Shown piece by piece: positions 29,401-32,400 of a stretch of 64,000 nucleotides of DNA (positions are counted from its first letter, which is position 1; each line of letters begins with the position of its first letter). Origin of the DNA: Chrysomallon squamiferum (Eukaryota > Animalia > Mollusca); contig CM022671.1 in NCBI GenBank assembly GCA_012295275.1, forward strand, positions 24,552,001 through 24,616,000, in the 5' to 3' direction. Below the pieces are notes generated by a model, which worked only from the letters and a program-made list of their open reading frames with translations, had not been told where the DNA came from and did no database searches. Position numbers and translations under genes: made by a program.

Positions 29401-32400
29401 ATTCAGAAATGTTGCATACTCAGTCTATTGCACATGCATATCACATTGTAATGGAAATAAATACTATATTTAGTTTCTTTACTATTCATATTTAAGAATT
29501 ATTTCTATTTAATGTTAATATTTCTAATAATTAATTGTTATTGTTTTTTTTCTACATCAGCGTTAATTAATTTTGATATTACAGGTTTTACGAGCTGCTG
29601 AACAAGCTCATTTGTGGTCAGAGCTAGTATTCTTGTATGATAAATATGAAGAGTTTGACAATGCCATAATTACCATGATGAGCCATCCAACAGAGGCATG
29701 GAGGGAGAGCCAGTTCAAGGATATCATCACCAAGGTAGCCAACATTGAGCTATACTACAAGGCCGTGCAGTTCTACCTTGACTACAAACCTTTGCTTGTC
29801 AATGACCTGCTCTTGGTCCTCACTCCCCGCTTGGACCACACCCGAATGGTGAACTATTTCATTAAGGTAAACCAGATACCACTTGTGAAAACGTACCTGC
29901 GATCAGTGCAGAAGAATAACAACAAGGCCATAAATGAGGCATTGAACAACCTCTTCATTGAGGAAGAAGATTATCAGGGTCTGCGTGCCTCCATCGATGC
30001 CTACGACAACTTTGACAATATCTCTTTAGCTCAGAGGCTGGAGAAACATGAGCTGATTGAATTCAGAAGAATAGCTGCTTACCTCTACAAGGGTAACAAC
30101 AGGTGGAAACAGTCTGTCGACTTGTGCAAGAAAGATAAATTATTTAAGGTAAGATTACTTTTGTTTTTATATTATCTTGTGCATGTGCGTTACAGAACAT
30201 TTAAATAGTAATGTGACTTCACTATCTTGTAAGGTGAAATTATCTGCACATGATAAAATGCTATTTTGCACTGACCTTTCAGTTACATTTCTTTTTAGAA
30301 AGATTTCCATTTTATAGTTTAGTTTGAAACAATATATTACCCAGATGATTAGCAAGTGAAAGATATTATAGAATTAAGTAACATGTACATTTAAAAGTTT
30401 TTGTTTGAAAAAGGAAAAGTGAGCAATCTGTACCCTTATACTGTCCCAATATTTATAAAATAGTAAACACTGTTAGTGCATGAAGTTGCAATATTAAATT
30501 ACAGATTTGTAAAAATTATTATTATAACATTTTAATATTTTTTTTTTTTTTTTTTAACCTTAAGATAAGTATCAATTAGAAGTAAATTATTTTATGACAG
30601 GATGCAATGATGTATGCTGGTGAATCAAGACAAGTGGATATTGCTGAGGATCTTATTGCTTGGTTCCTTGAGAATGGAAACAATGAATGCTTTGCTGCCT
30701 GCCTCTTCCAGTGTTATGACCTACTACGACCTGATGTTATCCTGGAACTTGCTTGGAGACATAACATAATGGACTTTGCTATGCCATACATGATACAAGT
30801 TATGCGTGAATACATTGGAAAGGTAAATTAGTAAAACAAAATTAAATATCTTTTTTTTTTTTGCCATTAAGATGTTATATTGCATTTGTAAGACACTGAA
30901 AGTAGCTGAAACAAATTTAAAGATGTTATTTACTGCTTTCAAATACTAGTCTTTAGGTACTGATATGATTTGCCTTTAGGAACTGATATAATCTTTAGTA
31001 ACATTCTTTGAACATGAAATAAATTTATTTCATTTCATATTTTTATGCATATATATATATTTCTTTAAATTATGTTAATTATTACTTTCAAGGATATTAG
31101 CCTTTAACAATTGTTGTATTGGGTTAAAAAGGCAGGTTTTTAAATGCTGCCAATATTTCAGATATCTTATTTGTTCAGTGAGGTAAGCCTAGAAAATTTT
31201 CAAAATCTAACGAGCAAAATTTATTTTTTCTGATTTCATTTTCCACTGATTTTTAAAATATGCACGTAGTTAATGAAGCATTGAAAAAAAGAAAAAAGAA
31301 AAAAAGCATCAGAAATAAATGGGTCTATCAATTTTGAACTTTTTTTTTAATGCCAGCTTGTTCCATTTTTAATGCTTTATTTTTGTCCAGATATTTCTTT
31401 AAGTGCAAATGATAAACATTAACAAGTTGGTATTTAATAATTGATGAAAAAGAACCTACATATCTCTTCCATGCAGCTTGAAAACAGCATGCTCCTCCAT
31501 GGGCAAAATATTCTGTATTAAGTAAAAATAAAAATAAAAGAGAAATGTTAAAAGCATAATATACAAGTTTGACTGCAGCACATGTTGCTTGTTTTTCACT
31601 TACTTTTTTGTGACATTTGTTACTAACACTTGTTTTTAGACAAAGCAAATTAAAGTGCTCTGGCTGATTCATTAACTTAGTGTATTTAGGCATAGCAGTC
31701 TCATAATTTGCCTATTCGTATCTGTTCATAATGCAGTGGTAGGTTGAAAACACATGTCAGTGGCATGGTCTAGAACCCACATTTAATGTTAAATAGGAGC
31801 TAGCAAAGATAATTGTTTCATTGATTACTGCAGTATTAAGAAACAATGACCCAGGTGTCATTTTTTGACTTTGCAGCCATTCACAAGGAGAAATGGAATT
31901 AACTGACCTATTTAGTCAGCCATTGTTTGTTTAAGATGTAACTCGGCCTACACTTATCAGTCTGTTTTCAAATGGGTCATCTCTTGTCCCCTTTCATGTA
32001 AACATGGACCTGCGTCAACCTAGCTATTGTCTATGAGGCTATGTAGTCTAGATTAAAGTTGTCATTTACAGAGCTGACACAGATTTTAGAGGGGTATTTT
32101 TTTGTTGTTCTTGTTTGCTTTTCTTCTTTCTTGATCTAAACAGGATTCCAACTTTGATCCAGATTATATTTGTTTTTTTCAAAGGTTGGCCTCTTTGCTA
32201 AATGTGTAACATGCAGCTGATGATAAAATAATTTTTCTATCCTCTTGAATTTTGTTTCCTTGCTGATGAGTGCATAATAAAAAATATTAATCATGACCCA
32301 AAATTGGTGTTTTATTTTCAAAGCAGGACATTCTAAAGTTTTATGTATGTAATAGCTGAATAGAAAAATACAGTATACTGTCAGTTAGCTATATATTTTT

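Follow-up and report, generated by a model that had tools for sequence, protein, structure and literature searches.

In the clathrin heavy chain gene of the mollusc Chrysomallon squamiferum we found a 21-nt stretch (31162..31182, plus strand), encoding ISYLFSE, that has the form of an in-frame cassette microexon and lies at the junction occupied in vertebrate CLTC by exon 31. The vertebrate exon, a seven-residue insert spliced in in muscle, has been demonstrated to act as a genetic switch of clathrin from pits to plaques, and in the literature found it is described only in vertebrates. We consider the mollusc stretch a plausible, unproven counterpart. It is probably a real microexon of minor or tissue-restricted use, and we lean towards the fuller proposal that such a cassette adds one heptad to the clathrin tripod by the whole mechanism described below. 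All coordinates refer to the window, the stretch of 64,000 nucleotides analysed here (GenBank assembly GCA_012295275.1, contig CM022671.1, positions 24,552,001 to 24,616,000).

The host gene and its long introns

The clathrin heavy chain gene occupies 11320..33334 of the plus strand and comprises 31 constitutive coding exons for a protein of 1681 aa (Pfam PF00637), of which 1631 positions are identical to the 1676-aa Gigantopelta aegis protein P0001 (∼97%). The constitutive exon upstream of the candidate is 222 nt long (30601..30822, plus strand) and corresponds to CHC17 residues 1536–1609; in a homolog search its closest named matches were from Gigantopelta and Haliotis (97%). When aligned, this exon ends at the equivalent of mammalian CHC17 K1609, and the first-pass annotation of this DNA had therefore placed the candidate correctly at the exon 31 junction. 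The constitutive exon downstream (76 nt; 32798..32873, plus strand) begins with VDKL and encodes part of the lower tripod helix.

The two exons are separated by intron 29 (30823..32797, plus strand), and the earlier description of a 21-nt stretch between them in an unusually long 2-kb intron held up: the intron measures 1975 nt, against a median of 318 nt for the 30 introns of the gene model. Only three of those 30 exceed 600 nt, namely intron 1 (3718 nt), intron 4 (2776 nt) and intron 29. In-frame candidates with the pattern TTTCAG..GTRAG are held by exactly the two long introns that are not the first, 4 and 29. Intron 4 is the host of a 12-nt microexon in the N-terminal propeller region (17088..17099, plus strand), encoding QDAS, which the first-pass annotation had brought into the argument and which matches exactly the insert that sets Gigantopelta isoform X1 apart from X2.

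At the QDAS junction, variable inserts of 3–13 aa were observed in 73 of 232 readable proteins, from gastropods, bivalves, cephalopods, nemerteans and sea urchin; alternative inserts are far more widely distributed at this N-terminal site than at the tripod junction. Other lophotrochozoan heavy chain inserts (P0160-P0164, P0065, P0178, P0183) include 9 aa after residue 83 in Mya, Mercenaria and Dreissena, with further ones in Octopus (6 aa at 134), Tubulanus (6 aa at 659) and Lineus (∼9 aa at 1026). Elsewhere, the window contains two exons of 60S acidic ribosomal proteins (PF00428), diverged and placed on opposite strands within 3 kb (2184-2369, plus; 4803-5006, minus), which from their sequence pattern we take to be of the P2 type; exons of what is probably a gene for Mediator subunit 21 (6946-8173, plus; a weak PF11221 match, under the curated cut-off); and an exon encoding a start that resembles a signal peptide and a somatomedin B domain (54050-54295, plus; PF01033).

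Splice signals, chance expectation and RNA

The letters at 31145–31188 are those that the first-pass annotation had reported: TGCTGC (31145–31150), TTTCAG ending at 31161, the 21 nt encoding ISYLFSE, and GTAAGC. The stretch is in phase 0/0, contains no stop and has AG and GT borders. When scored with a position weight matrix (PWM) trained on the gene's own 30 introns, the donor (GAG/GTAAGC; 31183..31188, plus strand) is strong (11.8; the real donors have a median of 10.1), and it is the sole AG/GTRAG site inside any intron of the gene, where about one would be expected by chance in 17 kb as estimated from base frequencies. The acceptor is weak (−0.4; the real acceptors have a median of 6.3); the 3′ splice-site region (31145..31161, plus strand) has a weak pyrimidine tract, and the nearest upstream AG lies ∼26–28 nt away. 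TGC occurs at −17 and −14 from the candidate acceptor, placing UGC between branch point and AG as in exons controlled by eMIC/SRRM. TGC at a similar distance is found at 133 of 703 intronic AGs and at 6 of 30 constitutive acceptors, which is a background frequency, and on its own TGC is uninformative as a microexon signal. Counts of TGC, YGCY and GCATG motifs were not clearly over background, and the acceptor has neither the UC-rich pyrimidine tract nor the long AG-exclusion zone of the eMIC/SRRM class, since AGs are present at −28 and −32.

Those two AGs could themselves serve as acceptors for the same donor (31132..31136, plus strand). An exon starting at 31132 would be 51 nt long with an in-frame stop, and one starting at 31136 would be 47 nt long, shift the frame and stop in the penultimate exon, so that either would truncate the tripod or lead to decay, as a poison exon or a short-tail isoform. 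The sole branch-point-like YTNAY site within 80 nt upstream of the candidate exon, TTAAC at −58, sits upstream of both AGs at the usual distance from them, and vertebrates produce short-tailed heavy chains through out-of-frame microexons one intron later (PMC13676984). However, the upstream AGs follow an A-rich stretch that has no pyrimidine tract, TTTCAG resembles the gene's usual acceptors and that of the QDAS exon, and the inserts found at this junction in mollusc database proteins are 7 aa long. We judge use of the upstream acceptors highly improbable and return to the 21-nt cassette.

Among 321 in-frame candidates in the introns of the gene, the 21-nt stretch ranked third by PWM score and the 12-nt exon fifth. 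In Markov shuffles of the host intron, some in-frame candidate of up to 51 nt reached this score in 167 of 400, and one of exactly 21 nt in 11 of 400. Under simple motif rules, which were picked after the site had been seen, a stop-free 21-nt candidate arose in 194 of 4000 shuffles for YAG..GTRAG, 23 of 4000 for TTYAG..GTRAG and 8 of 4000 for YAG..AG/GTRAG. The splice signals alone are unexceptional; what is exceptional is that a candidate of 21 nt should lie in this intron (0.2–5% of shuffles).

Four RNA runs from one study, examined as contigs, carry the gene. All four contigs splice the 452-nt upstream intron correctly, contain the 222-nt exon and join its end at 30822 straight to the 76-nt exon at 32798, which their loose ends enter directly; none of the four includes the 21 nt. 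The contigs were aligned on the upstream exons, and the skip call was read from the loose-end letters beyond 30822. Because contigs drop minor variants, this result shows that skipping dominates in the four samples, not that inclusion never occurs. For the splice switch proposed by the first-pass annotation, the skipped form was thus seen in all four contigs and the included form in none.

These observations bear on the possibility that the 21 nt are a pseudo-exon, in which an AG and a strong GT happen to stand 21 nt from each other in AT-rich intron sequence and are never used for splicing. Skipping in every contig, the shuffle rate of 167 in 400 for equally good candidates, the two candidates of the same gene that score higher, and the commonness by chance both of TGC and of the heptad pattern considered below are all as such an accident would have them. 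The same explanation, however, needs a coincidence of length and place that arises in 0.2–5% of shuffles, and leaves the long intron unexplained. Protein comparisons, described in the following section, add to both sides.

Seven-residue inserts at the junction in other animals

We fetched 382 proteins, of which 294 could be read at the tripod junction, 247 of them non-vertebrate. A 7-aa insert is present in four of the 247: Tegillarca granosa P0034 (ISVRFND), and Haliotis cracherodii X1 and X2 together with a fragment from H. rubra (VNSLVVK). Inserts of this length in other molluscs are thus found in two further genera, and are already present in public protein models. This count leaves out P0195 (3 aa) as well as P0067 and P0069, whose apparent inserts of 15 and 21 aa were rejected as intron read-throughs. 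No 7-aa insert was seen among the oyster, mussel, scallop, octopus, nemertean, brachiopod and sea-urchin isoforms listed. Both Gigantopelta isoforms are also without it, though X1 has QDAS, an absence that a pseudo-exon would explain. No protein bearing ISYLFSE was recovered in homolog searches or among the listed members of 30 clusters (at most 15 from each), a weak negative because 90%-identity representatives hide isoforms.

The Tegillarca insert (KUTeg_010124) resembles the window peptide in its length and junction and in sharing I1, S2, F5 and an acidic residue at position 7. Its BLOSUM score against ISYLFSE is 14, reached by 16 of 9393 intron-derived peptides; when position 7, which is biased by splicing, is disregarded, 44 of 9393 do as well. 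It differs from the window peptide in having Arg at position d, and it comes from an automated model that is without 14 residues just downstream. Since it starts with Ile and ends with Asp, the insert would not be an extension from a donor or an acceptor, assuming a conserved intron position. A Tegillarca annotation is described in PMC8136487, whose available text does not mention the locus tag of P0034. The pseudo-exon explanation would have to treat this likeness as a coincidence with a faulty model, a peptide match of 0.2–0.5% to a bivalve insert at the same junction, in addition to the coincidence of length and place. We consider a pseudo-exon unlikely, though a serious contender, and continue to prefer a real cassette.

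The Haliotis insert has the same length and junction and little resemblance to ISYLFSE (BLOSUM 4; 775 of 9393 peptides score as high). Its fit to the vertebrate pattern is reached by 1 of 9393 peptides over all positions and by 239 of 9393 at positions 2–6 only, a modest fit. It may be a donor extension, because it starts with VN as the window's intron does. A single-sequence fold of the Haliotis fragment P0125 gave one helix running through the insert (214–258) at low confidence (mean pLDDT 41.9), and we give it no weight as evidence.

In mammalian CHC17 the insert after K1609 is VDAIKEK (PMC13676984), the sequence that the first-pass annotation had given, and bioRxiv 2026.08.20.745084 agrees; PMC13676984 also describes human CLTCL1 as having no exon 31. 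In database models the exon-31-type inserts are VDAIKEK in fish heavy chain 1, VDEFAAK (in the second teleost gene), VDAFAAK and VDEIAEK in teleosts, and VDEMKAK in lamprey, and an insert of this type occurs in 40 of the 47 proteins of vertebrate type, which the choice of query had enriched. VDGLFYK and VDGLFNK were observed in models of clathrin heavy chain 2 from birds and reptiles (P0269-P0273, P0279 and P0310-P0323, handles that also cover the second teleost gene and lamprey). The vertebrate versions agree only in V1, D2, K7 and a hydrophobic residue at position 4, so the other positions appear free to diverge. Judging from these sequences, exon 31 probably arose before the gene was duplicated in vertebrates, drifts in sequence and is open to loss, as in the human gene.

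Against this varied set, ISYLFSE scores 1 with VDAIKEK (equalled or exceeded by 814 of the 9393 null peptides) and 12 with reptile CHC22 VDGLFNK, a best-of-seven score reached by 98 of 9393. By mean score against the vertebrate versions it ranks 133 of 9393. Its fit to the consensus V-D-x-hydrophobic-x-x-K is reached by 164 of 9393 over all seven positions and by 528 of 9393 at positions 2–6, which is marginal, and V, D and K are not kept. The first-pass annotation had called the sequence unrelated to the vertebrate exon; this is right with respect to VDAIKEK and less so with respect to VDGLFNK, and since the vertebrate versions themselves vary widely the word overstates the difference.

A real exon need not have a function, and the 21 nt could be a low-level, lineage-young exonisation that is tolerated with frame and register kept and is under no selection. 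Dominant skipping, the patchy presence of inserts in molluscs and the little resemblance to the Haliotis insert all accord with this. Yet the likeness to the bivalve insert, together with the modest likeness to the vertebrate versions (the rank of 133 just given), would imply long retention. We find neutral exonisation quite improbable, and keep to a cassette that contributes to the tripod.

The first-pass annotation had proposed a survey of this intron across other animals, and the survey did not reveal a shared exon. From metagenomes, 80 loci were fetched and 16 complete and 14 partial introns scanned, none of them from a close gastropod; the remaining loci were set aside as spliced transcripts or intronless, as near-duplicates, or for introns of less than 60 nt. 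The 16 complete introns consist of 12 annelid-like, 1 ambiguous lophotrochozoan, 1 bivalve and 2 arthropod-like. No shared 21-nt exon was found in the 16 complete and 14 partial introns (the best score to four reference peptides was 5), nor any conserved intronic block across the 16 complete introns. Two near-identical annelid-like loci hold a 21-nt AG..GTGAGA stretch of their own (L025:1207-1227 and L033:3370-3390), encoding SRLVFDN behind a purine-rich acceptor; it is absent from the other loci and was treated as background. The position of the intron is kept in annelid-, bivalve-, rotifer-, arthropod-, fish- and sponge-like loci. The intron is therefore ancient, and any exon born inside it lands at this junction.

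Register, origin and comparison with known systems

Taking the Val of VDKL as position a, the a/d stripe of the skipped form reads M, M, Y, V, L, and the insert adds Ile at a and Leu at d. Vertebrate and Haliotis inserts have V plus I, L, F or M at the same places. The stripe thus remains hydrophobic on insertion of ISYLFSE, in agreement with the match of positions 1 and 4 to the VDKL register described earlier; of 9393 random heptapeptides drawn from introns, 1965 are hydrophobic at both positions. By the crude measure of helical hydrophobic moment the insert brings no rise (0.57 to 0.55), and neither does that of the fish pair (0.62 to 0.57).

In bioRxiv 2026.08.20.745084, V1610 and I1613 of the vertebrate insert are modelled facing the trimer core, and the insert raises the resistance of the trimer to detergent. 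Inclusion of exon 31 favours plaques (PMC7480091; review PMC13522860). We propose that in the window the weak acceptor and strong donor would lead to skipping by default, and that inclusion may require a tissue-specific activator of eMIC/SRRM or MBNL type. The included form would have a tripod helix longer by one heptad, and the added heptad is predicted to enlarge the hydrophobic core of the trimer as in vertebrate exon 31. By analogy, inclusion might stiffen the trimer and shift lattices to flatter forms; a plaque function for the mollusc heptad is suggested by this analogy only, and the two-ended microexon code that the first-pass annotation drew from this stretch and the 12-nt exon would be equally hypothetical. 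The exact junction, the shuffle rate of 0.2–5%, the QDAS match, the Tegillarca and Haliotis inserts and the preserved a/d stripe all favour the cassette. Counted against it are skipping in 4 of 4 contigs, absence from Gigantopelta, rarity (4 of 247), the lack of a shared intronic exon, the weak acceptor and the unraised moment.

The first-pass annotation had left the origin as either ancestral to bilaterians or convergent. Ancestry is disfavoured by the patchy presence, and convergence appears more likely. We favour an independent gain within molluscs, inside an old phase-0 intron in which the coiled-coil register is preserved only by inserts of 7 residues, because the insert is patchy in molluscs, missing from the annelid-like introns as well as from the isoforms listed for nemerteans, brachiopods and sea urchin, and a weak fit in sequence. 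A phase-0 intron in a coiled coil would accept 7-residue inserts best, and the splice-site consensus may favour V in the first codon and K/E in the last. Should the exon be real, inheritance from a bilaterian ancestor retains a sizeable minority share of our belief, because vertebrate paralogues show drift and loss. That a one-heptad tripod switch was inherited from that ancestor, with the snail, clam and abalone inserts being drifted orthologues of exon 31 repeatedly lost (as in human CLTCL1), is distinctly unlikely; if true, genetic control of clathrin lattice form would predate vertebrate muscle.

No invertebrate counterpart of exon 31 was found in a literature search made mostly without subscription papers; clathrin exons may yet stand in the supplements of bioRxiv 2026.09.05.749416, a study that includes octopus. 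The word ‘invertebrate’ does not appear in the available text of PMC7480091, PMC13676984, bioRxiv 2026.08.20.745084 or the review PMC13522860, and clathrin is not mentioned in that of PMC4978528. A mollusc counterpart with the same length and register and different letters would be a natural experiment, separating the idea that an extra heptad stiffens the tripod from the idea that VDAIKEK side chains recruit partners, an alternative left open by Moulay et al. (PMC7480091). It would date the tripod switch or show that it has more than one origin, and the vertebrate and mollusc heptads collected here form a ready panel for the published trimer-stability assay.

Among known systems, the neural microexons that depend on eMIC/SRRM3/4 (PMC8797185; bioRxiv 2024.09.17.613571) resemble the candidate in being shorter than 28 nt and in frame, with UGC near a 3′ splice site that is weak and, in mammalian targets, with a strong donor. 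The candidate differs from them (compare PMC8797185) in having no long AG-free zone and no UC-rich tract, and UGC only at background frequency. According to bioRxiv 2026.09.05.749416, it is common in bilaterians for one coding region to gain exons repeatedly, and its Type I convergent tissue-specific exons are different exons in the same coding region of orthologues in separate lineages, as proposed here. Clathrin is not mentioned in the main text of that source, and in the window the length is matched as well, to one heptad.

The closest comparison is with vertebrate CLTC microexon 31 itself (PMC7480091, PMC13676984, bioRxiv 2026.08.20.745084), with which the candidate shares the junction after K1609, the length of 21 nt, phase 0, hydrophobic residues at a and d, and default skipping. 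It differs in a peptide unlike VDAIKEK, with hydrophobic or aromatic rather than charged residues at c and e. The bird and reptile, teleost and lamprey inserts likewise have the same junction and length, and VDGLFNK shares Leu4-Phe5 with the window peptide; all of these keep V1, D2 and K7, whereas the window has I1, S2 and E7.
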